Source: Candidatus Bruticola sp. (GTDB taxonomy: Bacteria; Vulcanimicrobiota; Xenobia; Xenobiales; Xenobiaceae). Taken from it: a stretch of 64,000 nt of DNA. The position numbers were made by a program, and so were the translations under genes. The stretch covers positions 5,895 through 69,894 of the forward strand of contig JBJEGC010000022.1 of NCBI GenBank assembly GCA_051874695.1, in the 5' to 3' direction. Shown here in pieces: positions 36,104 to 63,830 of this stretch. The notes beneath the pieces are model-generated. The model was not told where the DNA came from. It worked only from the letters and a program-made list of their open reading frames with translations, and did no database searches. Position 1 is the first letter of the stretch; each line of letters starts with the position of its first letter.

Positions 36104-39100
36104 ATGACAGATCGTAGCAATATGGAGTCCCTTATTCAGCAAGCCGATGATTTAGTTGGCGCTGGTAATTGGGAAGAGGCCCGAGAAATATATAAGCAAG
36201 TGGTCAGTCAGGACCCTAATAACGTGGAAGTGCGCGAACACGTGCTTGCATCTGCAAAACGAGCATTGGCTTTCCAGGTTATTATCGGCCAGGATATGGC
36301 TCTGGCTGAGCTCTTTGCGGCTAACGGTGAAGCTGAGAAAGCTATCGATAGCTACAAAGATATCCTTAATTTAGAGAAGATGGCTCAAAGTCAGGGTATC
36401 AGTGGTGCCCAGCTGAGTGAAATTCAGAACTTAGTGGCTCAGGTTAAGCCGGAAATTTTCGCTAAAACCGGTACTATTTATCTGAATGAAGGCCGCTACA
36501 TGGAAGCCATTAAGTGGTTGCGGCCCAGTTTAGATTTGGATCCTAGCCGTTGGGATACGCATATGGCTATGGGACGCGCCCTGATGATGGACAACAAGAA
36601 CAAGGAAGCCATTTCCGAGTTCCAAGAAGTTGTTCGTTTGGCCAGTACTGAAGCTGCTAGTGCTTATGAACTGCTGGGTGAGGTCTTCCTGCGTATTGGG
36701 CGCTCTCCGCAGAACACGATCGTTTGGTTCCGTAATGCAGGTGAACTTTTTGTGCAGCGCAATGAGTTTACCGATGCCATTAGAGCTTATGAGCGTATTT
36801 TGCAATTTGAGCCTCGCAACAAAGATATTCTAGTTCGCTTAAGTGACATCTATACCGCCGAAGGCTATACCGAAAAAGCTTGTGCTGCTTACTTTACTCT
36901 GGCTCAAATTTTTGAGGAAGAAGGCTTCTCCGACAAAGTAATGAGTTACTTGGAGAAGACAATTGAGTTCAATCCTGCTGATGATGAAGCCAGAACGAAG
37001 CTGATCGCTATTTATGGCGAAGCCTTGGAAAACGATCCCTCCAATGTTAGTCTCAGAGTTCGCCTCATTGAGAATCTCCTTAAAAAAGGCATGTTTTCTG
37101 AAGCGGCGGAAAATCAGCTCGAACTGGCCAAGATCTATATCGACAAGGGCAGCATAGATGACGCCATCGCCACTTTGCGCAAACTTATCGATATTGAGCC
37201 GGATAATATTGAGGCCCGTCGTTTACTGGGCGATCAGTACCGGCGCAAAGATATGGGTACTGAGGCTTTGTCTGAGTATCAGGAAGTGGTACGCCTGTAT
37301 CAAGAGAACGGCTTTGCCGATGAGGCTATTGAGTTCCAACATCAGCTGGTCGAGATGTTCCCCGAAACTTCGGATTTGCGCTATCAAGTTGCTTTGTCTC
37401 TGCGCAGTCAAGGCAACCATGAGGGGGCTGTCAGAGAGTTGGACCGTCTGGTACGCAGCAATCCCGATGACATGATTGCCATGAACTATCTGGCTGAGGA
37501 GTATGCGGCTTTAGGCCATTGGGATAAGGCCATAGGGGCTTACCATGAGATACTTAATCATGATCCTGCCCGCTACGATGTGCGCAAGCGTTTAATTAAG
37601 TATTACGTTGAGCAGAGCTTTTATGAAGAGGCTATGGCGGAGATTCGTTTACTGCCTGATGACGACTTTGAAAAGAGAGCTTTTGCTTACAAGATCATTG
37701 AGCGCTGTTTGGAAGAAAACCGCACCGACGAAGCTGAAGCTTATATTCATGGTCTTGAGCCGGATGACGAACGTCTGGTTTCGTTCCACAAAGAGCTGCT
37801 TAAACGTTACCTCGATTTAGGAGAGCTTGTTCAGGCTGACAGGGTTGTAACTTTAATTCCTCGTTCTGATAAAGAACGTAATAAGTTGATTACTCGCCTG
37901 ATGGAGTTGTATCTTGGCGCCTCCAATATGGAAAGTGCAGTAGCGTTGATCGATCGTTTGCCTGACGACGATTCCCTGCGCCTTTCTTTTCAGCGTCGCC
38001 TGATTAATTCTTATCAAGAGATGGGACGCTTTGAAGATGCGGCTACTGAAATGGCGAAGCTTCCTCCCGGCGATGAGTCTTATCACGATTTCTCCATGCG
38101 TCAGATCTCCGGTCTTATGCAGTCTGGCAGACTCAACGATGCCATGAACTGCATCAAAGAGCTCAGTGAAGACGACCCTGCCCGCAACTCCTTTATGGGG
38201 CAGCTTATAGAAGCTTATTTGCAGGATGGCAATATCGATAAAGCTGCTCAGGAAGTGGCCGGTCTCCCTCCGAAGACTGAAGTTTGTTCCAGATATATGC
38301 GCCGCATTATTCAGGCCTATTTGAATAATAACCGTTTTGAAGAAGCTGAGCGCGATATTATGCTTCTCGATTCTAACGATCCTGAGAAGCTGTCGTTCTT
38401 GCGTATTTTGCTCCAAAAGTACGAAATTAACGGTTTAGTAGATAACCTTAGAGAGCTTGTGGTTAAGTTGCCTGACGGCATGCCTGAAAAGCAGCAGTAT
38501 CTGGACGGTATAGTGCATTCTTTCTTGACTGCCGGCAATATGGCGAAGGCGCGACAAGAAATTTACAGTTTAGCCGAGACTGTGTCGGAAAAAGGCAATC
38601 ACTTAGAAGCGGAGCGTCTCTATTCCGATCTTTTGGCTTACCATCCCGTCGATGTAGAAATCAGGATGCGGTTGTGCCAAGAAGTGGCTGCTCAAGGTAA
38701 GTTAGAGCGTGCTTCTGAAGGATTGTTGGTGTTGGCCGGACGTTTCCGTAAAGAGGGCAATGCTACATCGGCGGTAGACATTTATACTCGTCTTTTAGAA
38801 ATTGATCCGGGTAATCTCAATGCTCGCTACCGTTTGGGTGAAATTTGGGCTCAACATGGCCAGACTGCTCAGGCTTTAGAGCATTTCTCTTTCCTGGCTA
38901 GTGAGTATTTGCGGCAGAACTTGAATGAGGTCGCTCAAAAAGTTTTGCATCGCATTCTCGATTTGGACAGTAAGGACATTGTTCACCGCCGTCAGCTTAT
39001 CACTTTGTTGGCCAGAAACATGCGTCTGGAAGAAGCCATAGAAAATTATCGGGTTCTTTTGGGCATACATCTGGACAGGGGAGAGCTCGAAGAAGCTTTG

Positions 39101-40519
39101 ACTTGCGTGCGTGAAGTCAAGCTGCTGCAGCCTTTGAATTTGGAGCTCAGCCAGTGTTTGGGCGCTATGTTCCTGAAGGCCGGTTACTTAGAAGAAGGAC
39201 AGCAACTGCTGGAAGAGCTCATTCCTGCTTACAAAGGGCGCTCCGATCATGAAAACGTGGTTAAAGTGTTCCGAACCCTTTCTGAAGCCTTCGATGCTAA
39301 TCAGCAATGGGAAGCTGCTTTGGAGTATTTGGAGCGTGTTGGTGACGAACAGGTTGAGGCTGATGAGTGGAGGGAAGCTCAATCCAACTATTTGAAGGCC
39401 TTGGAAGAGTACTTGCGCCGTGGACGTCGAGAGTACACGGATACTCTCTTTGTTAAGTTGATTGACGGTTTCTTCCGTCATAAGAACGTCAATGAGGGTG
39501 TAGAGCTGCTGAAGGAAGTTGAGGAGCGTTTCGTTAGGGCGGGTCGAACCGATTTAGCTCTGATCGTAAAAGATCGCCTGGCTTCTATCATGGAGCGGCT
39601 TGAAGAATGGAGCGAAGCTCTCGATGTGGTCATTCTGATTGCTGATACCAACTTGGAGCTGGGGGATGTCGAGCAGGGTATTGCTTACTATCGTCGCGGC
39701 GTCGATTTGGCTGTCAATCATGATATGACCGAGCGCGGCGTTGAGCTGGCTTTCAAAATGGCCGACTTACTCATTAACTATCGGGGCATTGAGGCAGCTC
39801 GTCCGATTTTCGATGAGGTCAGGGTTTACGATAACCAGTCTCCGGAAACCATTGAGCGCATTGCCGATATTATGTTTGAGCGTGGTTACCGCGGTGAAGC
39901 TTGCCCTATCTACAAGGAAGTTTTGGAGTTAGAACCTGGACGCGCTCAGTCTCTTTCCCGCGTGTCTATTATTTACGCCTTAGAAGGTAAACTGGAAGAA
40001 GCGGCCGGCTTGGCTCGTCAGATATTCGCGAAGGGACTCGTTGGCAAAATCACTGAGGAATACGGCAAAGCTCTTTGCTGCAAGCCAAACGATGCCGTTT
40101 ACCACATTAAAATGGGCGAATTCTTTAGGCAGCTTGGTTTCTTGGAAGAAGCTATCGATGAGTTCCATAAAGCTATTACCGATCCGGCTAAGGTTTTGGT
40201 CGCAGTTAATGGTTTAGCTATGGCCTTCCAAGAAAAGGGCTACCGTGACTTAGCTATTAAACAGCTGCAGAAAACCATGGAACAGCCTGGTTTCAGCGAT
40301 GAAGAACTCCTCGATCTGCGCTATAATTTAGCTATTATTCTCCAGGCTGAAGGCCGCTACGATGACGCCATTCAGGCTTTCCAAGAGTGCTACGCCGTAG
40401 ATATTAAGTACCGTGATGTATCTGAGCGCTTGAGTGAACTCTTTGAAAAGGTTGGAGACGGAGTGCCAGGTGAGGGCAGTGGTTACGATGATTACTACTA
40501 TTTCGAAGGAGAGGAGTAG
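36104..40519 (+). CDS. giant all-TPR protein (ORF-track length 1484 aa; ~1471 aa from ATG 36104)
   Basis: TPR-like 34-aa units run throughout, with no TM segment. The ATG at 36104 has GGAG 5 nt upstream. The ORF-track start (GTG 36065) overlaps the upstream stop, so the two genes are translationally coupled or co-transcribed. Confidence 0.7.
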   Translation: MTDRSNMESLIQQADDLVGAGNWEEAREIYKQVVSQDPNNVEVREHVLASAKRALAFQVIIGQDMALAELFAANGEAEKAIDSYKDILNLEKMAQSQGISGAQLSEIQNLVAQVKPEIFAKTGTIYLNEGRYMEAIKWLRPSLDLDPSRWDTHMAMGRALMMDNKNKEAISEFQEVVRLASTEAASAYELLGEVFLRIGRSPQNTIVWFRNAGELFVQRNEFTDAIRAYERILQFEPRNKDILVRLSDIYTAEGYTEKACAAYFTLAQIFEEEGFSDKVMSYLEKTIEFNPADDEARTKLIAIYGEALENDPSNVSLRVRLIENLLKKGMFSEAAENQLELAKIYIDKGSIDDAIATLRKLIDIEPDNIEARRLLGDQYRRKDMGTEALSEYQEVVRLYQENGFADEAIEFQHQLVEMFPETSDLRYQVALSLRSQGNHEGAVRELDRLVRSNPDDMIAMNYLAEEYAALGHWDKAIGAYHEILNHDPARYDVRKRLIKYYVEQSFYEEAMAEIRLLPDDDFEKRAFAYKIIERCLEENRTDEAEAYIHGLEPDDERLVSFHKELLKRYLDLGELVQADRVVTLIPRSDKERNKLITRLMELYLGASNMESAVALIDRLPDDDSLRLSFQRRLINSYQEMGRFEDAATEMAKLPPGDESYHDFSMRQISGLMQSGRLNDAMNCIKELSEDDPARNSFMGQLIEAYLQDGNIDKAAQEVAGLPPKTEVCSRYMRRIIQAYLNNNRFEEAERDIMLLDSNDPEKLSFLRILLQKYEINGLVDNLRELVVKLPDGMPEKQQYLDGIVHSFLTAGNMAKARQEIYSLAETVSEKGNHLEAERLYSDLLAYHPVDVEIRMRLCQEVAAQGKLERASEGLLVLAGRFRKEGNATSAVDIYTRLLEIDPGNLNARYRLGEIWAQHGQTAQALEHFSFLASEYLRQNLNEVAQKVLHRILDLDSKDIVHRRQLITLLARNMRLEEAIENYRVLLGIHLDRGELEEALTCVREVKLLQPLNLELSQCLGAMFLKAGYLEEGQQLLEELIPAYKGRSDHENVVKVFRTLSEAFDANQQWEAALEYLERVGDEQVEADEWREAQSNYLKALEEYLRRGRREYTDTLFVKLIDGFFRHKNVNEGVELLKEVEERFVRAGRTDLALIVKDRLASIMERLEEWSEALDVVILIADTNLELGDVEQGIAYYRRGVDLAVNHDMTERGVELAFKMADLLINYRGIEAARPIFDEVRVYDNQSPETIERIADIMFERGYRGEACPIYKEVLELEPGRAQSLSRVSIIYALEGKLEEAAGLARQIFAKGLVGKITEEYGKALCCKPNDAVYHIKMGEFFRQLGFLEEAIDEFHKAITDPAKVLVAVNGLAMAFQEKGYRDLAIKQLQKTMEQPGFSDEELLDLRYNLAIILQAEGRYDDAIQAFQECYAVDIKYRDVSERLSELFEKVGDGVPGEGSGYDDYYYFEGEE

Positions 40520-40532
40520 GGCTGAGTTTTAC

Positions 40533-41984
40533 ATGAATTGCTCTGTTACTCCATATCGGAAGGTTTTGCGCAGAAGCGTAATTGCTGCCGGTGCAGCGAT
40601 GGCTCTCTTCTGCCTTTCCTGCAGAGCATGGGCCCAGGAAGTCGGCGGCGAAGCTGCTGCTGGTGAGGGCGGGCTCGTGCAAACTTTAGCTTCTCATATG
40701 CAGGTGCTACAGATAGTCTGCGGAGTGTCTGCAGCCATTTTTGTAGTCTGTCTGTGCTGGGAAGTTTGGGTCTCCATTCAGCTGCATCAGAATGGAGGTG
40801 TGCTTCCTGAACCTGAGCCGCAGGAAGAAGAGCCTGAACCTGAAAAGCCTTCCCGCTTTGAGGCTCCTGTGCTGGACGAAACAGAAGATCCGTTTAAGGC
40901 GCTGTTAAATAAGGCCAGCTCGTCTGAGGATGCTAATAAAAATGAGGGAGGAAGTAAGAAGAGTTCTGGGTCTTCCTCTGCTTCTGCACCTTCGTCTTCC
41001 GATTCTGCTGAATCGGGGAGCGGTTTCTCCGGCAGTAAGAAATTTGAACCTTACAAAAATGTCGAACCTATTAAGAGTGGCGATCGTATAACTCGCCGTG
41101 AGCAGGATAATCCGTCTTTTGATGGCGATGCGACTATCGCTGTTGGAGCGGGGTTAGTTCCTCCTAAGGTCGGTGGTTTTGGCGTAGGTACTGGCGGAGC
41201 TGTTGGATTTGGCACTCCTCCTAAACCACCCGCACAGCCTGCTGCTGTCGGATTTGGAGCTCCTTCCAAGCAACATAGTATAGGTTTTGCTCCGCCGAAG
41301 TCTCCCGCCTCCGGTTCGACTGGCTTTGCTCCGCCGAAGCCTCCCGTTTCTGGTCAGGCCGGTTTTGCTCCGCCGAAGTCTCCCGTTTCTGGTCCGGTAG
41401 GCTTTGCTCCGCCGAAGTCTCCCGTTTCCGGTCCGGCCGGTTTTGCTCCGCCGAAGTCTCCCGTTTCTGGTCCGGTAGGTTTTGCTCCGCCGAAGTCTCC
41501 TGTTTCCGGCCCTGTAGGCTTTGCTCCGCCGAAGCCTCCCGTTTCCGGCCCGGCCGGTTTTGCTCCGCCGAAGCCTCCCGTTTCCGGCCCGGCCGGTTTT
41601 GCTCCGCCGAAGTCTCCTGTTTCCGGCCCAGCCGGTTTTGCTCCGCCGAAGTCTCCTGTTTCTGGCCCAGCCGGTTTTGCTCCGCCGAAGTCTCCTGTTT
41701 CTGGCCCAGCCGGTTTTGCTCCGCCTAAACACGGAGGTTTAGGCGTTGGTCCGGGAGCATCCTCAAGTCGTTCTGCTGCGGTTCCTACCAATGTGGGAGC
41801 GGCTCGTCCGACAGTTCCTTTGGGGGCAGCCAGGAGCGCTGCCGGTTCTGCTGACGCCGCTAAAACAGGAGATTCTTGGAAAGCTTTAGCCAGCGGTATG
41901 GAGAATAAAGGTATGGCTCACGGAGCGCCCCGAAGCCAATCTTTAGATATTAAGCGCAGTGGTTTCCCCCCTGCTAACCCTTAA
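40533..41984 (+). CDS. signal-peptide/TM protein with 12 tandem 13-aa proline-rich repeats (GFAPPKSPVSGPA)
   Basis: The ATG at 40533 gives MNCSVTPYRKVLRRSVIAAGAAMALFCLSCRAWA/QE (signal peptide). A second hydrophobic helix follows (VLQIVCGVSAAIFVVCLCWEVWV). Then come an acidic/Ser-rich region, the repeat array, and a Gly/Ala-rich C-terminus. Confidence 0.6.
   Translation: MNCSVTPYRKVLRRSVIAAGAAMALFCLSCRAWAQEVGGEAAAGEGGLVQTLASHMQVLQIVCGVSAAIFVVCLCWEVWVSIQLHQNGGVLPEPEPQEEEPEPEKPSRFEAPVLDETEDPFKALLNKASSSEDANKNEGGSKKSSGSSSASAPSSSDSAESGSGFSGSKKFEPYKNVEPIKSGDRITRREQDNPSFDGDATIAVGAGLVPPKVGGFGVGTGGAVGFGTPPKPPAQPAAVGFGAPSKQHSIGFAPPKSPASGSTGFAPPKPPVSGQAGFAPPKSPVSGPVGFAPPKSPVSGPAGFAPPKSPVSGPVGFAPPKSPVSGPVGFAPPKPPVSGPAGFAPPKPPVSGPAGFAPPKSPVSGPAGFAPPKSPVSGPAGFAPPKSPVSGPAGFAPPKHGGLGVGPGASSSRSAAVPTNVGAARPTVPLGAARSAAGSADAAKTGDSWKALASGMENKGMAHGAPRSQSLDIKRSGFPPANP
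41283..41735 (+). repeat. tandem 39-bp repeat x12 encoding GFAPPK(S/P)PVSGP(A/V)
   Basis: Directly visible in the sequence. Units differ at a few synonymous and A/V sites. Confidence 0.85.
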
Positions 41985-43369: not shown

Positions 43370-43460
43370 CTGGTTTTTGGGGTCGAAATTCGGTTTATAA
43401 GCTGCAGATTGAATTTTGTCTGTGATAATTAAATGAGGAATAGTGAGGCCGGATACTAAA

Positions 43461-45101
43461 ATGGAAGTAATGACTACTCTGGAAAGGCAAATTCAGAGAA
43501 ATCGCCGTTTACTGGAAAGTGATCCTAATAATGTCGATTTGATGCTTACTTACGCGCTGGATTGCCTGCGTCGCGATTTGCGTTTTGAGGCTTTAGTTAC
43601 TTTCCAGAAGGCAATTCAACTGAAAGATACGGCTGATGCTCATCTGGCTTTGGCGCAAATTTTCTATTTGCAGTCTCTTTATCGCGAATCTTATGAAGAG
43701 CTGCGCCGTGTTTTTAAACTCGATTCCATAAATATAGGCGCTCATGTTTTACTCCATCTGTTGAAGGATAAAGAGAGCATTCCCGACGACTTAGTGCCTC
43801 GTTTAGCTTTTGTGCCATCCCGTTCTGCTTTGGGAGATGAAATGATCAACGCGAGCAATGAGCGCGATCTATATCGTCGTGAAGTTCAGGAATATGAGGC
43901 TATTGCGGCTAGCGGTGTCAACGATCCCGAGCCTATTGTTCTTTATTGTTTGGGGGAAGCTAAAAAGCGCGTTGAGCGCATAAATGTCAACTTGAAAATA
44001 ATGAGCCGCTGGGAGCTTTTGGCTATTGATATGCCAGGCTTCCTGCCTGAAGAGAAGAGCGACTTAGTTGATAAATCTGAGGCTGCTTCCTCTGCTGAGT
44101 CTGAGGAGGTGGAGTCCGTCCAACCTCAAGAATCCTCTGTTGAAATAGAGGCTGTTGCGGCTGTGGAAACTGAGGCTGAAATTGATGCTGAAGCTGAAGA
44201 AAGCCACACTAAGAAAACTAAGAAGTCTAAGCGCCGTCGCGCCAAGGAACGCCATACTTCAGCCGTTGCTGAGACTGAGCAAGTTGCTGCTGTGGAAACC
44301 ACAGAGCCTGCGGCTGAGGTGGAAACTGAGGCTGCTGTAGCTGAGGAGACAACTGAAGCGGAAATTTCTAAAACTGCAGAAACTCTTGATACCACTAGTA
44401 TTGAAGCAGAGCAGCCTGTTGCAGTCAAGATTGAACAACCTGTTGCTGAAGATGAGAGCACCGTTTCCGAAGTTGCCGATATTGTCGAGGAGGTTCCTGC
44501 TGTTGCAGTTACTCTCGATAGTGAGTCTCCCAAGAATGAAGTGGCAGAAGTTGTTTCATCCGAGATTGAGGTGCCCGCTGCTGATCTGTCCGTTGTAAAA
44601 GACGAACAAACTGAGGATAAGGCGACTGCAACTGAGCCTGAGTCTGTATCCGATGATAGTACAACAGAGGTAATAGAAGTTTCTGAATCTGAAGTCGCTG
44701 TCGCCGAAGAGCCTGCAGCGGTGGAGGAAGTTCCTGAACTGCCTTCTGAAGAGGAGTTGGCCAAAGAGGCGTCCTTTAATGAATTTTTGGCTTCCATGTG
44801 CAAAATTAAAGGCAGTGTGAGAGCTATGGTTTTGACCGCTCGCGGACGTTTGGCTGCTATAGAGGGAGAGTTTGAACAGCCTGAAGAGACTGCTGCCAGA
44901 GTCGCTGGTTTCCTGAAAGGTGTCTGCAGTGACGGCAAGATGCGTCTAATTACTTTTGTCAGTGAGAGCAAGAACAGTTCAGTCATTCTGCAGCAGATTA
45001 ATGACACTTATTATATGTTGGTAGACGGACGGTCAGTCACCTTGGGCGTTTTGCGCCAACGTGCTGAGCGATGCAAAACTGAATTGGCTGGTTTGTGTTG
45101 A
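43461..45101 (+). CDS. TPR - acidic low-complexity linker - Roadblock/LC7 domain fusion protein
   Basis: N-terminal TPR-like repeats and a ~230-aa Glu/Ala/Val/Thr-rich linker. The C-terminal ~110 aa fit the roadblock pattern (GSVRAMVLTARGRLAAIEGEFEQPEETAARVAGFLKG...SSVILQQINDTYYMLV). Confidence 0.55.
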   Translation: MEVMTTLERQIQRNRRLLESDPNNVDLMLTYALDCLRRDLRFEALVTFQKAIQLKDTADAHLALAQIFYLQSLYRESYEELRRVFKLDSINIGAHVLLHLLKDKESIPDDLVPRLAFVPSRSALGDEMINASNERDLYRREVQEYEAIAASGVNDPEPIVLYCLGEAKKRVERINVNLKIMSRWELLAIDMPGFLPEEKSDLVDKSEAASSAESEEVESVQPQESSVEIEAVAAVETEAEIDAEAEESHTKKTKKSKRRRAKERHTSAVAETEQVAAVETTEPAAEVETEAAVAEETTEAEISKTAETLDTTSIEAEQPVAVKIEQPVAEDESTVSEVADIVEEVPAVAVTLDSESPKNEVAEVVSSEIEVPAADLSVVKDEQTEDKATATEPESVSDDSTTEVIEVSESEVAVAEEPAAVEEVPELPSEEELAKEASFNEFLASMCKIKGSVRAMVLTARGRLAAIEGEFEQPEETAARVAGFLKGVCSDGKMRLITFVSESKNSSVILQQINDTYYMLVDGRSVTLGVLRQRAERCKTELAGLC

Positions 45102-47577
45102 TTTGAAAGCAGAGCGCGTTATTTTTAACATAAGCACTTACGGTGCTTTGGCTGTTGTTGGTGGTATTTTGGCCTTTCCTGCCGTTACAGCGGTGTCACA
45201 GGCCTACAGTAACGGCGCGCTCAGCTCTGCCCCCGTTTCTTCTCTCAGTCTGTTCGACTTTTTGAGACATGTTGTCCTAGATTCCGATTCAGGGGCCATG
45301 ATGGGAATGGGCAGAGGGGCTCTGGTTATGCTCATTGGAGTGGCCTCTCTGCTTTGGTTGTCTGTACCTCGCCTGCGCACTGAAAAGGGTGTTTTTGTTG
45401 GCATTGGTTTAAGTCTACTGCTTTTGTGGGGGGCCCTTTCTGCTTACTTCAGCGTCTGCGCTTATGAGAGCATGCTCGATTTATGTTCCTACGCTTCTTC
45501 CGTCAGTTTCTTTTTGTTGATAGCTGCCCTTAGCAGAGAGTTCTCTCTAAGGAGATGCCTTGGGGGAAAAAGTGGCGGTGAGGTTCAGCAGTCTGCAGAG
45601 CGCACTGCCAAAGCGGCTGTTTCGTATTTGCAGCTGATGACTTTTGCTGCAATAGCAGGGGCATGGCTGCTTTTTTTATGCAATCCTGTGGGCGATGGCT
45701 TGTCCGGCAGCTTTTACAATAAGAATTTACTCGCCGTATTTCTGCTTTTAACTCTTCCTGTAGGAATAGTTCGTCTATTTGAGCACTGCCGGGAGGCAGA
45801 AATCCATTATATAAGTGGTCTTAGTGCCTCTTTAGTTGCGTCAATTTTTTGTCAGATTTCTTTTATCACTGCAAATATAAGTAGTCTGTTTTTAACTTAC
45901 AGCCGTTCTTGCTTAATATTAGCTTGTTTTGCTCTGTCTGCTTCTTTTTGGCTAATTGTTTATCTTTCTAAAAATAGTCGTGAAGCTTGGCGTGGGGCAG
46001 CTTGGGCCGCCTTAAGTTGTCTGCTGTTGATCTTTTCAGTTTTTCTCTTTTCACGCTCGTTTTATGTCGCTTTAGTTTGCCTGGCCGCATCAGCAGTGGT
46101 TGTTTACAGGTTTTTCTTGAGTGGTGTCAAGGGCGGTAAGTTGATGGCGGCTCTTTTATGTGCTTCGGCTGTTTTATTTTCGTTGGTTGTCCTTTTTGTG
46201 CAGAGCGATTCGATGGCCGCTAAAGGAAGTCGCCATTTACAAGATTTGGGGGCCAAAGGCGATACCTCTTTAACATCCAGATGTCAATTCTATGAAGCTT
46301 CTCTAAAAATTACTGGGGAACATCCTCTGCTGGGAGTAGGGGCCGGTAATTTTGAGCGCTATTATCCTCTGTTTCAAACTGATTTTCGCTGGTTTTCTAA
46401 GCGTTCTCATTCTTTGAGCTGCGATTTGTTGGCTGAAGGAGGGGTGCTCTCGTTTGTACTTTTTTATGGACTGCTTGCTTTTGTTTATGTGCAGACCGTC
46501 AAAAAGGTCAGATCTGATGCGCCGCTTGTGGCTCAGCTTCGTTTGGCCTGTGCTTTAGGAGCTGCCCTTCTACTTATTCATGCCCAGTTAGATATAGACA
46601 GCCATGTTATGGTACTGCCTCTTTGGGGAGCTGCTTTGCTTGGTTTGGCTTGGGGAATTCCCAGCCGGGATGAGTGTTTATCTAATACTCTGGATGAGTG
46701 TGGTTTGTGGAGCAGTGGCAAACGTTACTTTATTAGTTATAACTGCATTCCCGCCGCGGCAGTTATCTTGGTTTTTTGCTTTTCAGGACAGGCCTGGGGA
46801 GGGCAATATTACAGTACTATAGGTAAAATTTATCTTGATATGGATGAACCGGAGAAGGCCAGGCAGTGTTATAACTGGGCTTCTGAATACGATCCCAATA
46901 TCGGTGAGTACTGGCGTCAAATGGCCGCTCTGGCCTTAAACCAGTGTAAGAGCGAAGATAAAGCTAAGTCGGTAGCCGTTAGCATACGTTTTTGTGCTAT
47001 GCAGGCTGCGCGTCTCGATCCCCATAGAGCTTCTGTACAGAGTATACTGGGACAGGGATTGGAGCTGTCTGACGATTTGCAGGGAGCCGAACAATGTTAT
47101 AAGCGCGCTTTAGAATTGGATAGTAAAAATTCTCCTGATATTTATAGCAATTTGGCTAGAGTATATTCGAAGCAAGGACGCCTTAAAGAGGCTAAGTCTG
47201 TACTCGATCGGGCTTGGTCGGCTTTTCCGGAAGAGTTGCTGCATCAGAATTATTTCTTTGACTTTCGTTACAAGCTGATAAATAATGAAATGGCTTCTTG
47301 TTGTTTAATGCGTTTTGAAATTGCTGCAACTGAAGGCAACATGGCAGAAGCAGAACTCAGCTTGTCCAGGGCGTGCAGGTTTGATAGCTCTCTTAAGAAT
47401 AGTTTGAAAGATGCAGCTGTCTATTTTCTAGAGCAGAGCAAGATTTCTGCTGCAGCGGGACAAATTAGCAAGGCAGAAAAGGAGAAAGCCAAAGCTGTAT
47501 GCTTCCTAAAGGTGGCTGCTTCTGCTATGCCGCAGGACGACAATATAAAAGGTTTGCTCCGGCTAACGGAAAGGTAA
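45061..47577 (+). CDS. O-antigen ligase-like (Wzy_C) polytopic membrane protein with C-terminal TPR domain
   Basis: More than 10 TM helices. The Wzy_C signature is present (EHPLLGVGAGNFERYY...RSHSLSCDLLAEGGVLS). The C-terminal ~280 aa are TPR-like. The start is uncertain because it overlaps the upstream gene. Confidence 0.65.
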   Translation: MLSDAKLNWLVCVDLKAERVIFNISTYGALAVVGGILAFPAVTAVSQAYSNGALSSAPVSSLSLFDFLRHVVLDSDSGAMMGMGRGALVMLIGVASLLWLSVPRLRTEKGVFVGIGLSLLLLWGALSAYFSVCAYESMLDLCSYASSVSFFLLIAALSREFSLRRCLGGKSGGEVQQSAERTAKAAVSYLQLMTFAAIAGAWLLFLCNPVGDGLSGSFYNKNLLAVFLLLTLPVGIVRLFEHCREAEIHYISGLSASLVASIFCQISFITANISSLFLTYSRSCLILACFALSASFWLIVYLSKNSREAWRGAAWAALSCLLLIFSVFLFSRSFYVALVCLAASAVVVYRFFLSGVKGGKLMAALLCASAVLFSLVVLFVQSDSMAAKGSRHLQDLGAKGDTSLTSRCQFYEASLKITGEHPLLGVGAGNFERYYPLFQTDFRWFSKRSHSLSCDLLAEGGVLSFVLFYGLLAFVYVQTVKKVRSDAPLVAQLRLACALGAALLLIHAQLDIDSHVMVLPLWGAALLGLAWGIPSRDECLSNTLDECGLWSSGKRYFISYNCIPAAAVILVFCFSGQAWGGQYYSTIGKIYLDMDEPEKARQCYNWASEYDPNIGEYWRQMAALALNQCKSEDKAKSVAVSIRFCAMQAARLDPHRASVQSILGQGLELSDDLQGAEQCYKRALELDSKNSPDIYSNLARVYSKQGRLKEAKSVLDRAWSAFPEELLHQNYFFDFRYKLINNEMASCCLMRFEIAATEGNMAEAELSLSRACRFDSSLKNSLKDAAVYFLEQSKISAAAGQISKAEKEKAKAVCFLKVAASAMPQDDNIKGLLRLTER

Positions 47578-54134: not shown

Positions 54135-54220
54135 CCTTATGAACGGCTGCTGAGACGGCTCCGTTTGCTTGTAAACAATATAGCCGAGTTTTTTGTTAAA
54201 GCAGGGAGGTGTCTCAGCCT

Positions 54221-55132
54221 ATGCATCCGGCAATCATTAGAGTGACTCCAGCGGTAAAGTTTATACTGATACTGAACTGCCTTGTGTATGTGGGCCAGTT
54301 GGTGTTTCAGAAACTGTTGGGGAGTACGCTCATAGAGAGCTGGCTGGCCTTAGTCTGTAAGCTAAGTTATATCTGGCAGCTTTGGCGTTTTGTTTCTTAT
54401 GCTTTTTTGCATACTTCTGTTTGGTCTTTGTTGCTGTCCATATTGGCTTTGCTGCTTATCGGCCCTGCTCTGGAAGGATATTTGGGAAAGCTTAAGTTTT
54501 TGCATGTCTATTTCGGGAGCGTTATCTGTGGAGGCTTGGCATCTTATGTAGTGGCGCAGTTTGTACCTGAGCCTGTAGTTGTCGTGGGCGGTAGTGCCGG
54601 AATTTTTGGAATTTTAGCTTGTTTTGCCATCTTGAATCCGGAAGCGTGCTTTAATGTTTGGCTGCTGTTGATCATTCCTATTAAGGCTATTTATGTGTGG
54701 TGTATTACGGCGTCCTTTCTTGTCATATGCATGTTGGACGGCCCGGGAATGGGCTGGTGGCCAGCCAATGATTTAGGAGGTTTCGTTTTCGGAACTTGTA
54801 TCTGGCTGTCGCAAACGGATGTAGGACGGAGCTTAAAAGCGCGATATAGCCGCTGGAAAGCTTGGAGACGAATAAAGTTCAGCAGATTGAAGGCTATGCG
54901 CTCTTCCGGTAGTACAATCCTTAATAAAGATAATCAGGATAGCAAACGCTGCATTTCTTTAAAATTGTTGCCCAACTCTCAAACTTTCCATAATTCTGAA
55001 AGCAGCAAAGCTGCCAGTAATCCTGATGAATTGAAACTTAACGCTCTCATGGACAAATTAACTCTCGAGGGAGCGAAGTGCTTAACGGAAGAAGAGCGCG
55101 CCTTTCTGAAGTCGAAGTCAAAAAGAAATTGA
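54221..55132 (+). CDS. rhomboid-family protein (possibly catalytically altered) with ~100-aa C-terminal cytoplasmic tail
   Basis: Six TM helices. A GxSxG-like motif is present (VVGGSAGIFG). The position of the TM6 catalytic His appears to read ANDLGGFVFG (Asp for His), judged by hand alignment. Confidence 0.55.
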   Translation: MHPAIIRVTPAVKFILILNCLVYVGQLVFQKLLGSTLIESWLALVCKLSYIWQLWRFVSYAFLHTSVWSLLLSILALLLIGPALEGYLGKLKFLHVYFGSVICGGLASYVVAQFVPEPVVVVGGSAGIFGILACFAILNPEACFNVWLLLIIPIKAIYVWCITASFLVICMLDGPGMGWWPANDLGGFVFGTCIWLSQTDVGRSLKARYSRWKAWRRIKFSRLKAMRSSGSTILNKDNQDSKRCISLKLLPNSQTFHNSESSKAASNPDELKLNALMDKLTLEGAKCLTEEERAFLKSKSKRN

Positions 55133-56452: not shown

Positions 56453-57517
56453 TCAGGCGGAAGGAGAAGTATTTGACTCCGTTCCAGATGTAGTTTCCTG
56501 TTGGTGTACCGCCGGAAGATCGTCTTCGGAAGGCCGGTATTCTGGGTCAAGATTGCGGATCTCGTCCATAACAGCTTCGGACAGTTTTGTGTAATAAAGC
56601 ATTTGGTTAAGACGATCTCCGGGCAACTTATCCAGGAAGAGATGGCTCAAATCCATAGGCTTGCCTATGTAGACTTTCATTGTTTTGAAAACGGTGGGAA
56701 ATTTCATCCCTACGCCCAAAACTTGAGCCGTTCCGGCCATAAAAACAGGCATAACTATAGGGCGTGCCTCGTGAATAAGTTTACCCACGCCCGGCTTCCC
56801 GTGGCCTACTTTGCCGGTGCGGGAGCGGGTTCCCTCTGGATATACGATCATTATATTATCTTTGAGGAGCTTGCGCCATTCCTCAACCTGCTCCATATTA
56901 CCGGTGCGTCGATCTACCGGATACGCTTTGAGATGGCGAAAAAAATGACGTCCTAAAATGCGCATGACTCTATCACGCAACTTCCTGGAAGAGGGGTCGC
57001 CGAAAAAGTTTTTACGGTCTGCTAAATTGATGGGCAGATACTTGGGCTGGAAGAATATTTTGGGTACGTAAGCGGCGGCTTCAAAAATAAAGTTGTCCAG
57101 CAAAGAGTTATGATTGATACAATAAAGTACATTCTCATGTTCTTTGGGAATATTCTTCAATCCGTAAACTTTGGTTTTATTCAGCATTCTGAAGAGTACG
57201 ACAGAACCTACAGCTGCGGCTCCGAATGCAACGGAAAAACCAAGGCCATCTATAGTTTTGCCTATAGCCTTCTTAGCTGCGCCAATAAATTTGTTGGTCC
57301 GTTTAAGTTTGGTCTCACACATTCTTACCTCATTGGTACCTAAGTCTGCTGACGATTCGGTAGAGTCCAAGTCTGAAAACTTTTCAGCTACGGTTGTGTC
57401 GCCACTTTTCTTAAAAAATAAATTGCGCACGGCCCCGCCTAATTTGCTGCGAGATACAACTGCAGGAATGTCTTTCCGCTCCGCTTTGGCTTTATCATCA
57501 TTAGTCTTTTGGTACAT
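56453..57517 (-). CDS. lysophospholipid acyltransferase (PlsC/LPLAT family) with N- and C-terminal extensions
   Basis: HxxxxD motif (HNSLLD) and a PEGTR motif (YPEGTRSRTG). Confidence 0.7.
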   Translation of the reverse strand: MYQKTNDDKAKAERKDIPAVVSRSKLGGAVRNLFFKKSGDTTVAEKFSDLDSTESSADLGTNEVRMCETKLKRTNKFIGAAKKAIGKTIDGLGFSVAFGAAAVGSVVLFRMLNKTKVYGLKNIPKEHENVLYCINHNSLLDNFIFEAAAYVPKIFFQPKYLPINLADRKNFFGDPSSRKLRDRVMRILGRHFFRHLKAYPVDRRTGNMEQVEEWRKLLKDNIMIVYPEGTRSRTGKVGHGKPGVGKLIHEARPIVMPVFMAGTAQVLGVGMKFPTVFKTMKVYIGKPMDLSHLFLDKLPGDRLNQMLYYTKLSEAVMDEIRNLDPEYRPSEDDLPAVHQQETTSGTESNTSPSA

Positions 57518-58282: not shown

Positions 58283-58615
58283 TTCTTCTTCTTCTTCGTC
58301 GTCGTCAGCATAGCCTATCTACATGCTCCTGCAGGGAAAGAGTTGATCAAGCATTTTCTTAAAAGTAGCCTACAGTTAGGCATATAGAGAGCAAACGTAC
58401 CAGAAGTACGATCTATTATAGTGACAAACTCATTTAAATACTAGGATACTTTTTGTGTGGCGCGAACTTTGCGCAGGGTCTTTCCTCGTTAAATTGAAAA
58501 ATCCCGTCTTCAAACTGATAACCTGAGTTCGCTTACGGTATCAACATATTTGAGGAGTATATACTAAGTTTATTAGCCGCAGGCTGATTAAGCTGTCAGA
58601 GGTTCTTTGCATATT

Positions 58616-59002
58616 ATGTCAACTTTATTCACCAAGATACTGAATCATGAACTTCCCGGTCATTTTGTGTACGAAGACGAAAAATGCGGCGTCTTTCTCT
58701 CCATTGCTCCTATAGGTCGCGGCCACCTTTTGGTCGTGCCCCGCAGCGAAGTTGATCATTGGATCGATCTTAGCAGCGAAGACATGAACCATTGTACTGC
58801 TGTTGCTCAAAAGATGGGAAAAGTTTTGATGAAAACTTTTAATCCCACTAAAGTGGGGGTATTGATTGCCGGATTAGAGGTTCCTCACACCCATATTCAC
58901 TTGATTCCGATTATTACCGAAGCCGATCTGTTTAAACGTCCTCAGGAAGTTTCTCAAGAGGAATTAGCCCAGACAGCTGCACTCATCAGGCAGAATATTT
59001 GA
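58616..59002 (+). CDS. HIT-family (histidine triad) protein
   Basis: The HxHxH motif (HTHIHLIP) and the N-terminal HINT-like region are present. Confidence 0.8.
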   Translation: MSTLFTKILNHELPGHFVYEDEKCGVFLSIAPIGRGHLLVVPRSEVDHWIDLSSEDMNHCTAVAQKMGKVLMKTFNPTKVGVLIAGLEVPHTHIHLIPIITEADLFKRPQEVSQEELAQTAALIRQNI

Positions 59003-59083: not shown

Positions 59084-60100
59084 ATGCTCCATAATAATGT
59101 TTATTTGCAGTCTCTAGAATATGAGCTGCCATCAAATGTTGTCACCACTGAAGATATTTACGATCGTCTTAATGTAACTTTCAAGCGTTTAGGGTTGCCT
59201 ATCAGCTGGGTTAGTGCTCTTTCTGGTGTAAATGAGCGCCGGGTTTGGAGAGCTGAAGAGAAACTTCCGGATATAGCGGCCAGAGTTGCTGGTAAGGCGG
59301 TTAAGCAGGCCGGTATACCTTTGGAAAAGATTGGCTGCATTGTGTGCACCTCTGTATCCAAAGAATTTATAGAGCCCTCAATGGCCTGTATGGTTCATAA
59401 TGCGTTAGGATGTCCCCCTGAGACTATAAGTTACGATATTTCCAACGCGTGTTTAGCATTTATCAATGCCATATCTTATATGGGACAGCTTATTGACAAG
59501 GGTATTTACGAGGCCGCTTTAATTGTCGATGTGGAAAGCTCCCGCTTGGTTATGGAGAATACTATCGAGCATTTGGCCAAGAGTGATACCGATTTAACTA
59601 CGTTCTCTAAGCGTTTTGCCGGTTTGACATTGGGATCCGGGGCTGTAGCCGCTGTTATTTGCAATGAAAAGTTGGCTACTTGTGAACGCAAAGTTTTGGG
59701 ACATGTTCAGCTAGCTGATACCAGGTACTGCCGCCACTGTATAGGCACTTTTTCGGATATTATTACGGATCAGACTAGTTTAATGAAAGCTGGCATTGAA
59801 CTGGCCGGCCGAACTTGGAAAGTTGCTGAACAAACTTTAGGGTGGAGCGCTGACAAATTAAAACATTATATTTGTCATCAAGTTGGAGCACGTCACTACC
59901 GCTTGCTGTTTGAAGCTTTAGGTCTCGATTTAGCTAAGTCTTTCCAGACTTTTCCCTTCTTGGGAAACGTAGGACCGGCGGCAGCTCCCATTACTTTGGC
60001 GATAGCTGCTGAGCGGGGAATAATCAAAAGTGGCGATCATGTAGGTATTATGGGCATTGGCAGCGGCTTAAACTGTGCTATGATGGAGATTGTTTGGTAA
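59084..60100 (+). CDS. oleA: FabH-like thiolase-fold condensing enzyme (OleA-like)
   Basis: KAS III family motifs are present (DISNACLAF with the Cys, HQVGARH, GNVGPAAAP). It is the first gene of a tight FabH-like / alpha-beta hydrolase / AMP-ligase / reductase block, which is the ole gene order. Confidence 0.55.
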   Translation: MLHNNVYLQSLEYELPSNVVTTEDIYDRLNVTFKRLGLPISWVSALSGVNERRVWRAEEKLPDIAARVAGKAVKQAGIPLEKIGCIVCTSVSKEFIEPSMACMVHNALGCPPETISYDISNACLAFINAISYMGQLIDKGIYEAALIVDVESSRLVMENTIEHLAKSDTDLTTFSKRFAGLTLGSGAVAAVICNEKLATCERKVLGHVQLADTRYCRHCIGTFSDIITDQTSLMKAGIELAGRTWKVAEQTLGWSADKLKHYICHQVGARHYRLLFEALGLDLAKSFQTFPFLGNVGPAAAPITLAIAAERGIIKSGDHVGIMGIGSGLNCAMMEIVW

Positions 60101-60101
60101 G

Positions 60102-60998
60102 ATGAAAAAAGTAAGATCAGATGCTTGGAAGCCTTTATATCCTTTTGCTTCCAATTACATGTATGTACCCAACACCGGGTTGCGCATGCATTTCATCGAT
60201 GAGTGCCAGGCTGAACCGGGGCGGGAGCGTGAACCCATTGTTTGCGTGCACGGTAATCCGACTTGGTCGTATTATTACCGGGAATTAGTCAAGGCTTTCA
60301 GGCCTCATCACCGTGTAATAGTACCCGATCATATCGGTATGGGCCTTTCCGACAAGCCGCAACATTATAATTATTGCTTAAGTTCCCATATAGATAACTT
60401 TGAACTGCTCATGGATAAGCTCAATCTTGAACCTTTTACTATGGTCGTTCATGATTGGGGAGGGGCTATAGGACTGGGGTATGCCGTTCGCCATCCGGAA
60501 AAAGTGAAACGTATTCTTTTCTTGAATACGGCAGCTTACCGCTCTCCGTTTATGCCGTCCGTCATAAAGTTGGCCCGAGTTCCTGTATTGGGTAGTTTAT
60601 TAGTGCGCGGTCTTAATGCTTTTGTTATAGGAGCTTTATTAATTAGTACTAAGCGGCCTATAAGTTCTTATACTGCTTCCGGTTACATCGCTCCCTACAA
60701 CTCTTGGTCTAACCGCATAGGTGTGCTGCGCTTTGTGCAGGACATTCCTATGGATCAGTCACACCCTTCTTATCAGACTTTGAAAGAAATAGAATTAAAC
60801 TTACCTAAGCTGGCTTCTATTCCCAAAACCTTTGTTTGGGGCGGCTTGGATCGTGTGTTCAATGATAACTTTTTGCGTCGGTGGCAGACTATTTATCCAG
60901 ATGCTGAGTTCCATCGTCTTAATGATGCCGGTCACTATGTAATGGAAGATGCTTCGGAGGTAGTTTTTGAACATTTAAGAAATCTGCTGGCACGCTGA
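60102..60998 (+). CDS. oleB: alpha/beta hydrolase, haloalkane-dehalogenase-like (OleB-like)
   Basis: HGNPTWSYYY and a nucleophile elbow VVHDWGGAIGL. The ATG lies 1 nt after the upstream stop. Confidence 0.55.
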   Translation: MKKVRSDAWKPLYPFASNYMYVPNTGLRMHFIDECQAEPGREREPIVCVHGNPTWSYYYRELVKAFRPHHRVIVPDHIGMGLSDKPQHYNYCLSSHIDNFELLMDKLNLEPFTMVVHDWGGAIGLGYAVRHPEKVKRILFLNTAAYRSPFMPSVIKLARVPVLGSLLVRGLNAFVIGALLISTKRPISSYTASGYIAPYNSWSNRIGVLRFVQDIPMDQSHPSYQTLKEIELNLPKLASIPKTFVWGGLDRVFNDNFLRRWQTIYPDAEFHRLNDAGHYVMEDASEVVFEHLRNLLAR

Positions 60999-61031
60999 TT
61001 TTAATATATTTTTTGCGACAGGTATTTTTGT

Positions 61032-62720
61032 ATGAGTAAAACACGCAGCCAATCAGCTGAAGGTAATAAGGCTTCAGCTGCAGCCAATATTTCAATTCAC
61101 CTTCCTAACATGGCCAAAGAACGGCCCGATCAGGATGCCGTCAGGTTTCCTGTGAAAAAAGAGTATCAGTCCTGGACTTATAAGCAGTTAAATAAAACGG
61201 TTGACGCTTATGCTCAAGCCATGAAGGCCGCCGGTGCCGTTAAAGGACAAAAGGCGTTGGTCTTCCTGAAGAGTGGCCCAGAACTCATTGCTGCGGTTTT
61301 TGCTCTCTTTAAAATGGGTGTGCTGCCGGTAATGCTCGATCCGGGCATGGGTACCAAGAATATGCTCCGCTGCATAGAACACGTTCAGCCGGATATCTTT
61401 ATAGGCATACGCAGGGCTCATATCATGCGCTGGGTTGTTCGTAAGTCGTTTAAGAGTGTAAAGTTGAACTTTACCGCTGGAGAGTGGATGCCCGGATGTA
61501 TTGATATGGCTAAGGAGGGAGCCAAATATACTGAAGCTTTTAAAGTGGTTCCCGTAGAAGAGAACGAAACTGCGGCGATTCTTTTTACTTCCGGTTCTAC
61601 TGGCAAGGCAAAAGGCGTAATTTATACGCACTCTATTTTCCAAAACCAGGTCAAGTATCTGAAAAATCTTTTCAACTTTAAACCCGGCGAGCTGGATATG
61701 CCCGGATATCCTCTTTTTGCTCTTTTCGATATAGCGTTAGGTATGACTTCGGTTATTCCGCGTCTCGATCCCAGCTGTCCAGCCAGTTGCGATCCTGCTC
61801 TCTTGGTAGAAACTATGGAAGAGTTCGGAGTTACTACCTGTCAGGGATCACCTGCTATTTGGCGCAAAGTGTACAATTACTGCAATGAAGAATCCATTCA
61901 GCTCGATACCCTGAAGCGTCTCATTACTTTCGGTGCCCCCATCCCCAGTGAGCTTTTAAAGGGCATGTTCTCTATAATGAACGACGAAGCCGAAATTTAT
62001 ACTCCTTATGGAGCTACCGAGAGCCTGCCTGTGGCAATTATTCCCGGCAGTAGTTTGTTAGAAGAAGCTGCTGATAAAACTATCTCCGGTGCCGGTACTT
62101 GTGTTGGAAAACCTATTAATGGCATGGAAGTCAAAATTATTAAAATTACTGATGACCCCATTGCTGAATTCGATGACAGTTTAGTATTGCCCGACGGTGA
62201 GGTCGGCGAAATTGCTGTTTATGGTCCGGTAGTTACTCAAGAGTATTATCATGAAGATGAAGCTAATGCGGTGTCGAAAATGAAAGACCGCCGTGGACGC
62301 AACTGGCATCGTATGGGTGACACCGGCTATTTTGACAGTAATCACAATTTGTGGTTCTGTGGACGCAAAGCTCATCGTGTGGAAACTGAGAAGGGAACGC
62401 TTTTCCCCGTTATGGTCGAAGGCATGGCGAATAATCATCCTCGAGTTTTCCGCAGTGCTTTAGTGGGCGTGGGCAAGCAAGGGAAACAAACTCCCGTCTT
62501 GGTTGTAGAACCTAAGCCCGGTTCTTTCCCTGAAGACGATAAGCAGAAAGAGTTGCTCTCCCGTCAAATTTTGGCTCGCTACGATGAAGACAAGCTTTAT
62601 AGTCAAATTCAAGAAGTACTTTTCTACGATTCTTTCCCGGTAGATCCGCGCCATAATGTTAAGATCCATCGTGAAGAACTTGCTCAGTGGGCTGCGGAAG
62701 AACTTGGCAGTGCTCAATAG
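61032..62720 (+). CDS. oleC: AMP-dependent synthetase/ligase (OleC-like beta-lactone synthetase family)
   Basis: AMP-binding motif I ILFTSGSTGKAKGV and motif II-like YGATE. About 560 aa. Confidence 0.55.
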   Translation: MSKTRSQSAEGNKASAAANISIHLPNMAKERPDQDAVRFPVKKEYQSWTYKQLNKTVDAYAQAMKAAGAVKGQKALVFLKSGPELIAAVFALFKMGVLPVMLDPGMGTKNMLRCIEHVQPDIFIGIRRAHIMRWVVRKSFKSVKLNFTAGEWMPGCIDMAKEGAKYTEAFKVVPVEENETAAILFTSGSTGKAKGVIYTHSIFQNQVKYLKNLFNFKPGELDMPGYPLFALFDIALGMTSVIPRLDPSCPASCDPALLVETMEEFGVTTCQGSPAIWRKVYNYCNEESIQLDTLKRLITFGAPIPSELLKGMFSIMNDEAEIYTPYGATESLPVAIIPGSSLLEEAADKTISGAGTCVGKPINGMEVKIIKITDDPIAEFDDSLVLPDGEVGEIAVYGPVVTQEYYHEDEANAVSKMKDRRGRNWHRMGDTGYFDSNHNLWFCGRKAHRVETEKGTLFPVMVEGMANNHPRVFRSALVGVGKQGKQTPVLVVEPKPGSFPEDDKQKELLSRQILARYDEDKLYSQIQEVLFYDSFPVDPRHNVKIHREELAQWAAEELGSAQ

Positions 62721-62732
62721 CGGAGAAAGAAT

Positions 62733-63743
62733 ATGGCAAAAGTATTAGTCGTAGGCGGTGGTGGATTCTTAGGCAAGGCGCTGGTCAAGAGACTTATCGC
62801 TCGAGGCGATAGTGTACGTAGTTTAGCTAGAGGGTCCTACCCTGAGATCGAATCGCTCGGTGCTGAAGTTATGCGTGGCGATATCGTCTCTTCAGAGACA
62901 TCTTTAGAGGCCGTTGCCGGATGTGAAGCAGTTTATCATACTGCTTCTAAAGCCGGTATTTGGGGCGATTATGCCGAGTACGAACGCATAAATGTTTATG
63001 GCACGCGCTCACTCCTTGAAGCCTGCAGACGCCAGGGTGTGGCTAAATTTATTTATACCAGTACGCCTAGTGTCATCTATCATCCTAAGGCTAAAATTGA
63101 GAACATTCAGGAAGATACTCCTTATCCGGAACAGTTTGAGTGTGCTTATGCTCAAACTAAAGCTCAAGCTGAGAGAGAAGTGTTACAGGCTAACAGCCAA
63201 AGCCTGCAGACAGTTTCTTTGCGTCCCCATTTAATTTATGGACCTGGTGACCCTCATTTAGTTCCTCGCTTAGTGGAGCGTGCTTTTGCCGGTCAGCTGT
63301 TTCAGGTTGGTGATGGAACTAATAAAGTTGATATAACCTATGTTGATAATGCTGCGCAAGCTCATATTGATGCCTTTGAACATATAGATAAGTGCGCCGG
63401 CAAGGCTTATTTTATAAGCGATGGTCAGCCCGTTGTACTCTGGGATTGGGTTAAAGAGCTCTTAGAAAAAGTTGGAGCTCCTCCCATTACTCGTTCCATT
63501 CCTTATGGCCTTACTTGGGGTTTAGGGGCAACCCTAGAATTTGTTTATAAGGTGCTGCGCAAAAAAGAAGAACCTAAAATGACGCGTTTCACCGCTGCTC
63601 AGTTGGCGACTTCTCATTACTTCAATATCGCTAACGCTCGTCGCGATTTGCAGTACGATCCTGAAGTTTCAGGTGCTGAGGGTATGGAACGTTTAGTGGC
63701 CTGGATTAAAGAGCAGGGAGCTGGTACTTTGCGCCATCAGTAA
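62733..63743 (+). CDS. oleD: NAD(P)-dependent reductase of 3-beta-HSD/epimerase family (OleD-like)
   Basis: Rossmann motif VVGGGGFLGKALV and a YxxxK catalytic pair (YAQTK). Confidence 0.55.
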   Translation: MAKVLVVGGGGFLGKALVKRLIARGDSVRSLARGSYPEIESLGAEVMRGDIVSSETSLEAVAGCEAVYHTASKAGIWGDYAEYERINVYGTRSLLEACRRQGVAKFIYTSTPSVIYHPKAKIENIQEDTPYPEQFECAYAQTKAQAEREVLQANSQSLQTVSLRPHLIYGPGDPHLVPRLVERAFAGQLFQVGDGTNKVDITYVDNAAQAHIDAFEHIDKCAGKAYFISDGQPVVLWDWVKELLEKVGAPPITRSIPYGLTWGLGATLEFVYKVLRKKEEPKMTRFTAAQLATSHYFNIANARRDLQYDPEVSGAEGMERLVAWIKEQGAGTLRHQ

Positions 63744-63782
63744 ACGGAAGAGGAGGGATTCCGCAGAAAAGATGTATTTATC

Positions 63783-63830
63783 GATGCCGTTGTCAGTTGC
63801 AGTGTAAACTGACAACGGCATCGCTGTTTA
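63783..63830. terminator. rho-independent terminator hairpin (perfect 16-bp stem)
   Basis: GATGCCGTTGTCAGTT-GCAGTGTA-AACTGACAACGGCATC followed by GCTGTTTAT. It follows the oleD-like gene and overlaps the last codons of a minus-strand ORF. Confidence 0.6.

Follow-up and report, generated by a model that had tools for sequence, protein, structure and literature searches.

A probable oleABCD operon for long-chain membrane hydrocarbons in a gut-associated Candidatus Bruticola of the class Xenobia

The locus analysed here is located in a stretch of 64,000 nt (the window) on contig JBJEGC010000022.1 of the assembly GCA_051874695.1, which was obtained from Candidatus Bruticola sp. The ORF (open reading frame) list together with Pfam revealed four plus-strand ORFs at 59084-63743 in the order oleA-oleB-oleC-oleD, and the tight packing, the gene order, and the enzyme families proposed in an earlier sequence-only reading of the window (thiolase, α/β hydrolase, AMP-ligase, and 3β-HSD-type reductase) were all borne out. 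The first gene, oleA (59084-60100), encodes a candidate acyl-CoA:acyl-CoA alkyltransferase of 338 residues from the thiolase superfamily (Pfam ACP_syn_III_C/Thiolase_N). It is followed by oleB (60102-60998), encoding a candidate β-lactone decarboxylase of 298 residues, which resembles the α/β hydrolases of haloalkane dehalogenase subfamily III (HLD-III; Pfam Abhydrolase_1). The third gene, oleC (61032-62720), encodes a candidate olefin β-lactone synthetase of 562 residues from the ANL adenylate-forming family (Pfam AMP-binding), and oleD (62733-63743) encodes a candidate NAD(P)H-dependent 2-alkyl-3-oxoalkanoate reductase of 336 residues, an extended short-chain dehydrogenase/reductase (SDR; Pfam 3Beta_HSD/Epimerase). 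The gaps between the genes were 1, 33, and 12 nt, respectively. The stop codon of oleA (60098-60100) ended one base before the ATG of oleB, so oleB is translationally coupled to oleA, and a GGAG preceded the gap between oleC and oleD. The ATG at 60102 is the oleB start used in public gene calls, and an alternative TTG at 60090 would give a protein of 302 residues. Chance cannot account for the arrangement of the four genes, since dozens of unrelated genomes have them in the same order. Judged from its sequence, the region very probably represents a functional oleABCD operon for the synthesis of long-chain membrane hydrocarbons.

The OleA protein aligned with the structures of Xanthomonas campestris OleA (3ROW, 3S21, 4KU5, 5VXD, and others) without gaps over residues 1-338, with a score of 248 bits. 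In this alignment E97, C123, H265, and N295 corresponded to Glu117, Cys143, His285, and Asn315 of the X. campestris enzyme, and the Cys-His-Asn triad was kept. The residues that set OleA apart from FabH were also checked. The Glu97-Pro98 pair was present in the window protein, and E-P occupied this position in every one of the OleA-like sequences compared (43/43). In E. coli FabH this position is F-P, and the insertion of about 15 residues found in OleA is absent. The essential glutamate (Glu117 of X. campestris) and the proline, supplied by the partner subunit, have been proposed as the criterion for OleA, with Phe in FabH (PMC7064751). The published OleA search pattern EPxx[AS]x(14,18)DxxNACL (Surger et al. 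2020, PMC7158056) was found in the translation as E97-P-S-M-A101, then 16 residues, and then D118-I-S-N-A-C123-L124. In addition, OleA passed the NCBIfam model PRK09258 (387, cut-off 285), which was also matched by the OleA proteins of the Chloroflexus and Lysobacterales clusters. The neighbourhood agreed with the residues, for oleB, oleC, and oleD all lay directly downstream on the same strand, and two or more of these genes near oleA define a "high-confidence" OleA (PMC7064751).

The closest solved relative of OleB was DhmeA (8CKP/8OOH, E value 4e-37), the first haloalkane-dehalogenase-like structure of subfamily III, with the pentad N63, D129, W130, D258, and H286; this subfamily also includes OleB of X. 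campestris, which conserves the pentad (PMC10503415). N56, D122, W123, D254, and H282 of the window protein, numbered from the TTG start, aligned with the pentad of DhmeA, and the full HLD-III pentad was intact. In the clusters of other phyla, the hydrolase encoded between oleA and oleC was 40-50% identical to the window OleB. The assignment of OleB rests on the pentad, the position between oleA and oleC, and the identity to these cluster hydrolases.

For OleC, the Pfam AMP-binding domain was matched with an E value of 5e-54, and the ANL motifs TSGSTGKAK (186), YGATE (326), and GDTG (429) were present. The top-scoring NCBIfam model was the broader PRK09274, which was passed with 631 (cut-off 478), and the next unrelated ligase family scored 189 bits. 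Some relatives of this protein were named "olefin beta-lactone synthetase" by JGI. OleD contained the Rossmann motif GGGGFLG (8) and the catalytic motif YAQTK (139), corresponding to GxxGxxG and YxxxK, and the next NCBIfam family after the OleD models was HpnA with 155 bits. By sequence, no solved structure of OleC or OleD was found, and the best matches were generic acyl-CoA ligases and NSDHL-type SDRs.

The "Firmicute-like" host proposed in the sequence-only reading was not supported. The GTDB was scanned with one genome per species, giving at least 583 OleA-type stretches, of which the best 80 were inspected. The closest proteins and loci came from Candidatus Bruticola and UBP9/Xenobia (Vulcanimicrobiota), and no Bacillota were present among the best 80 loci. 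The nearest OleA (94% identity) and OleC (92%) were both from "Candidatus Bruticola sp.", for which NCBI taxonomy gives the lineage Vulcanimicrobiota; Candidatus Xenobia; Xenobiales; Xenobiaceae (Vulcanimicrobiota is equivalent to Eremiobacterota, and the class Xenobia was formerly UBP9). A Firmicute origin was ruled out by these nearest relatives and by the taxonomy. The host is an uncultured animal-gut member of the Xenobia close to Candidatus Bruticola, in another Terrabacteria phylum than the Firmicutes. UBP9 has been described as a basal and apparently obligately anaerobic class of the Eremiobacterota, and the phylum as diderm (PMC6664022). The window accords with a diderm cell, as it encodes a type IV pilus operon with a secretin, a Wzy_C-type protein, and an SLH protein. 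The synonymous divergence (dS) of the window from the metagenome-assembled genome (MAG) of Bruticola sp. was about 1 or more, which makes the window a distinct species-level sequence.

Beyond these nearest proteins, the closest OleA loci were those of the human-gut MAG HGM23016 (88%), which was labelled Riflebacteria by its submitters, UBP9_UBA4705 (87%), the rumen genome RUG807 (71%), UBP9_UBA1432 (58%), and a Vulcanimicrobiota MAG (49%). The contiguous order A-B-C-D was also found in Bruticola sp. GCA_051874735.1 (locus L085), UBA4705 (L003), and a divergent Xenobia MAG (L087), and in RUG807 (L004) A-B-C was followed by just the start of oleD before the contig end. The clusters of Bruticola sp. 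GCA_051874735.1, UBA4705, HGM23016, RUG807, and UBA1432 are orthologous to the one in the window and share both its gene order and the junction of oleA with an upstream HIT gene. No ole annotation was seen for these Xenobia clusters in the public records, where the products are called "3-oxoacyl-ACP synthase III" and "fatty acid CoA ligase family protein".

By homology with the systems of Xanthomonas, Shewanella, and Micrococcus (PMC7064751, PMC7158056), we infer the activities and substrates of the window enzymes, the chain length of their product, and the physiological role. In the proposed mechanism, a fatty acyl-CoA would be loaded on Cys123 of OleA, and Glu97 of the partner subunit would act as the base for the head-to-head condensation with a second acyl-CoA, yielding a 2-alkyl-3-oxoalkanoic acid. 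OleD would reduce this product with NAD(P)H to the 3-hydroxy acid. The carboxylate of the latter would be adenylated by OleC and closed to a cis-β-lactone, which OleB would then open and decarboxylate through the Asp nucleophile D122 together with H282 and D254. This would release a long-chain cis-alkene with about 2n-1 carbons, which is predicted to remain in the membrane.

Several observations weigh against a functional olefin operon. No member of the Xenobia is cultured, and a supply of long-chain acyl-CoA, such as FadD, was not visible within the window. The identity of OleA to the X. campestris enzyme, the one well-characterised OleA, was only 37%. The best NCBIfam match of OleB was haloalkane dehalogenase, with 156 against a cut-off of 241, and neither an OleB-specific model nor a solved structure of OleB was found, so only its context and its homology to the cluster hydrolases distinguish OleB from other HLD-III enzymes. 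No convincing operon promoter was found by the consensus scan, which gave 14 sites against 9.5 expected, and the best sigma-70-like match near oleA ended within the oleA start codon. Moreover, OleC stayed below the cut-offs of the NCBIfam OleC models (523 bits for NF045786, cut-off 900, and 477 for NF045785, cut-off 850), as did OleD for the OleD models (413 bits for NF042422 and 375 for NF042423, cut-off 580). These equivalog cut-offs appeared to be narrow, with genus-level groups in the case of OleC, since the standard clusters of three other lineages also failed them: the OleC proteins of Chloroflexus, Acidobacteriota, and Lysobacterales, the order to which Xanthomonas belongs, scored 571, 529, and 730, and the corresponding OleD proteins scored 315, 362, and 371, all below the 413 of the window protein. 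On this calibration the failure was treated as uninformative rather than negative, and bona fide clusters normally give scores such as those of OleC and OleD here. The selection estimates are limited as well: the ratios of nonsynonymous to synonymous substitution (dN/dS) against the Bruticola sp. MAG (L085) were 0.025 for OleA, 0.040 for OleB, 0.037 for OleC, and 0.044 for OleD, values that are approximate because dS, about 1.2-1.7 in this comparison, is near saturation. Similar ratios were obtained against UBA4705, and all four ole genes are clearly under strong purifying selection.

Three other explanations of the four genes were weighed against the olefin operon. If the first gene were an ordinary FabH that starts fatty-acid synthesis, the four genes would be an unrelated neighbourhood of lipid metabolism. 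The public annotation as "3-oxoacyl-ACP synthase III" points in this direction, as does the fact that only FabH-type domains were seen by Pfam; the X. campestris OleA structures themselves, however, are deposited under the name "3-oxoacyl-[ACP] synthase III". FabH shares the thiolase fold and the Cys-His-Asn triad with the window OleA. Unlike OleA, it carries Phe-Pro in place of Glu-Pro, lacks the OleA-type insertion, and catalyses a decarboxylative condensation with malonyl-ACP (acyl carrier protein). The window protein fell far short of the NCBIfam fabH model TIGR00747 (103, cut-off 292), the best match to a true FabH structure reached 75 bits against the 248 bits for OleA, and no acpP, fabD, fabG, or fabF was found nearby. 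Ordinary FabH identity was refuted by the model scores, the structure matches, and the Glu-Pro motif, and this explanation is extremely improbable; the ole-operon reading thus survived the grouping test.

The remaining two concern the product. OleA, OleC, and OleD are common to the olefin and β-lactone pathways (PMC7064751), and the cluster might make a β-lactone or β-hydroxy acid as end product, as in the oleACD type of lipstatin and nocardiolactone, with another role for the hydrolase. The lipstatin (LstABCD) and nocardiolactone (oleACD) clusters contain an OleA-like thiolase, an OleC-like β-lactone synthetase, and an OleD-like reductase as the window does, A-C-D without an adjacent B occurred in some of the scan loci (L030, L048, L049), and the function of the window OleB is deduced from context only. 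Those clusters, in contrast to the window, lack OleB and carry tailoring genes, and the presence of oleB separates olefin clusters from β-lactone natural-product clusters (PMC7064751), so the olefin-cluster criterion is satisfied here by sequence. In the window, an HLD-III hydrolase whose pentad is intact is encoded between oleA and oleC, the gene is kept in every Xenobia cluster with a dN/dS of 0.04, and no P450, glycosyltransferase, or formyltransferase gene was adjacent. A β-lactone end product is therefore quite unlikely, as oleB is intact, translationally coupled to oleA, and conserved. It is also possible that a different head-to-head lipid is made, such as long-chain ketones or the products of branched, hydroxylated, or short acyl donors, in which case "C25-C33 polyolefin" would be the wrong class. 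OleA sets the structure of the product, and a variety of products is predicted for diverse OleA proteins (PMC7064751); the identity of the window OleA to the X. campestris enzyme is low, and stand-alone oleA genes exist in non-gut relatives. Against this, the complete set of four enzymes is present with its catalytic residues and is conserved as a unit, which makes the full route to the alkene the simplest expectation, and a different lipid is considered unlikely.

The four families, the order A-B-C-D, and the single strand of the long-chain olefin operon proposed here were the same as in the biochemically and structurally characterised OleABCD system of X. campestris, whose OleA has the same length (338 residues) and whose OleB is an HLD-III enzyme with the same type of pentad. 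The Xanthomonas-type OleC and OleD models were the best specific matches of the window proteins, yet these matches were below the equivalog cut-offs. X. campestris is an aerobic gammaproteobacterial plant pathogen, whereas the host of the window is an anaerobic, uncultured Terrabacteria diderm of the gut with a conserved HIT gene upstream of oleA. The pathway chemistry is also shared with the oleA-oleBC-oleD genes of Micrococcus luteus and other Micrococcales, which likewise belong to the Terrabacteria (Bacillati). In Micrococcales, however, oleB and oleC are fused (PMC7064751, PMC7158056), whereas the two genes are separate in the window, 33 nt apart.

The sequence-only reading also regarded the taxonomic position of the operon as unusual, which proved to be a weak claim. 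The best 80 loci of the scan spanned Acidobacteriota, Desulfobacterota, Myxococcota, Chloroflexota, Gammaproteobacteria, Gemmatimonadota, Bradymonadia, a "Cyanobacteria" MAG, and others, and in the fetched DNA about half of them had a contiguous A-B-C-D. Published surveys of ole clusters covered five phyla (PMC7158056) and seven phyla (PMC7064751), and thus greatly under-represent the distribution of ole genes in current genome collections; the Firmicutes and Bacteroidetes, the dominant phyla of the gut, were reported to have no ole clusters (PMC7158056). In the searchable literature, no publication was found that connects olefins or ole genes with Eremiobacterota, Xenobia, or UBP9. In a neighbor-joining tree of OleA rooted with FabH, the window protein was placed inside a clade of gut Xenobia, which was sister to a group labelled Eremiobacteraeota, Vulcanimicrobiota, Xenobia, and Armatimonadetes. 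Together with the loci described next, this placement favours a long residence of the ole genes within the phylum over a recent import, as weak evidence from a neighbor-joining tree of one protein. Stand-alone oleA genes were found in two Vulcanimicrobiota genomes and one "Armatimonadetes" genome of non-gut origin (L006, L082, L084), and the 6-7 kb to each side of these genes lacked oleB, oleC, and oleD. In the Candidatus Xenobia bacterium GCA_054610835.1 (L087), OleA was 48% identical to the window protein, and a PMT_2-type glycosyltransferase-like gene followed oleABCD. The ole locus and flanks of a human-gut MAG deposited as "Candidatus Riflebacteria bacterium" (L002, CAAGRW010000070.1) showed 83-88% identity with both the window and UBP9_UBA4705, and the MAG is probably mislabelled or carries an outdated name.

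This is a well-known pathway, and no new chemistry or mechanism is revealed by the window operon. The mildly new point is the host, an uncultured anaerobic gut member of the Eremiobacterota (Xenobia), by which the documented range of ole genes is extended to the phylum Eremiobacterota/Vulcanimicrobiota, class Xenobia. For a gut lineage that is uncultured, anaerobic, and bounded by an outer membrane, the operon also gives a testable prediction on the membrane lipids. A bolder view, which we consider doubtful, is that gut Xenobia are an unrecognised source of long-chain olefins in mammalian guts, with the HIT protein acting as a fifth component that clears stalled or mis-formed acyl-AMP.

The HIT-family (HinT-like) gene lies directly 5' of oleA at 58607-59002 on the plus strand (Pfam HIT), and its NCBIfam match was HinT-like but below the cut-off. 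In the 81-nt gap between the two genes, no significant structure was detected, the fold being no better than those of shuffled sequences, and no terminator was found, so that HIT may be co-transcribed with oleA. The adjacency of HIT and oleA was kept in L002-L005 and L085 with identities down to 50-58%, where the genes further upstream differed, and the HIT gene was not found beside the ole genes of the other phyla compared. It may reflect mere synteny of the lineage, and a functional link of HIT to the adenylate chemistry of OleC is speculation. The PlsC-like acyltransferase, the RNase H, and the AI-2E transporter were rejected as parts of the cluster, as their synteny was limited to the closest relatives and they did not occur beside ole genes elsewhere; the acyltransferase is for this reason probably unrelated to the pathway. 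Its gene is located at 56453-57517 on the minus strand, and the protein has a long N-terminal extension, with the domain starting from residue ~190. Downstream of oleD, the terminator scan found a hairpin with a perfect 17-bp inverted repeat at 63782-63823, between oleD and a convergent gene. Its free energy was -41.4 kcal/mol (z -6.4), none of 200 shuffled sequences was equally stable, and it probably marks the end of the operon or a terminator. The hairpin overlapped the last codons of the convergent gene, which is on the minus strand and runs off the window; in L001 this gene encodes a protein of 247 residues that had no Pfam match.

The OmpM-type outer membrane suggested in the sequence-only reading is plausible, whereas the relation to outer-membrane lipid composition that it raised for the operon is speculation. 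In the SLH protein of 867 residues encoded at 1347-3950 on the minus strand, the first ~140 residues matched the N-terminal SLH/stalk of OmpM of Veillonella (8BYS/8BYM) and of SlpA of Deinococcus (7ZGX), and the N-terminus also matched a cyanobacterial SomB-type porin model. The large C-terminal part, in contrast, had no family match. This protein is likely an outer-membrane tether of the OmpM/SlpA type, and the pilus secretin encoded in the window indicates that the cell has an outer membrane. The secretin is part of a complete-looking type IV pilus operon at 16701-28867 on the plus strand, which also contained PilB-like and PilT-like ATPases, PilC, a pilin with the N-methylation motif, a prepilin peptidase, PilM, PilN, and PilO, and an ORF of 254 residues. 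Directly 3' of the pilus operon, two abutting giant TPR-repeat proteins were encoded on the same strand, at 29394-36065 (2223 residues) and 36065-40519 (1484 residues). The ORFs that followed at 40434-41984 and 43443-45101 had no Pfam match, and a protein combining Wzy_C (O-antigen-ligase-like) with TPR was encoded at 45061-47577. Two rhomboid-family proteases were encoded at 4843-5784 (minus strand) and 54209-55132 (plus strand). The further proteins encoded at 6840-7859, 7928-8836, and 10747-11583 included a weak LIM-domain-like match, a truncated-looking Ser/Thr kinase domain, and a member of the class-A-type β-lactamase family.

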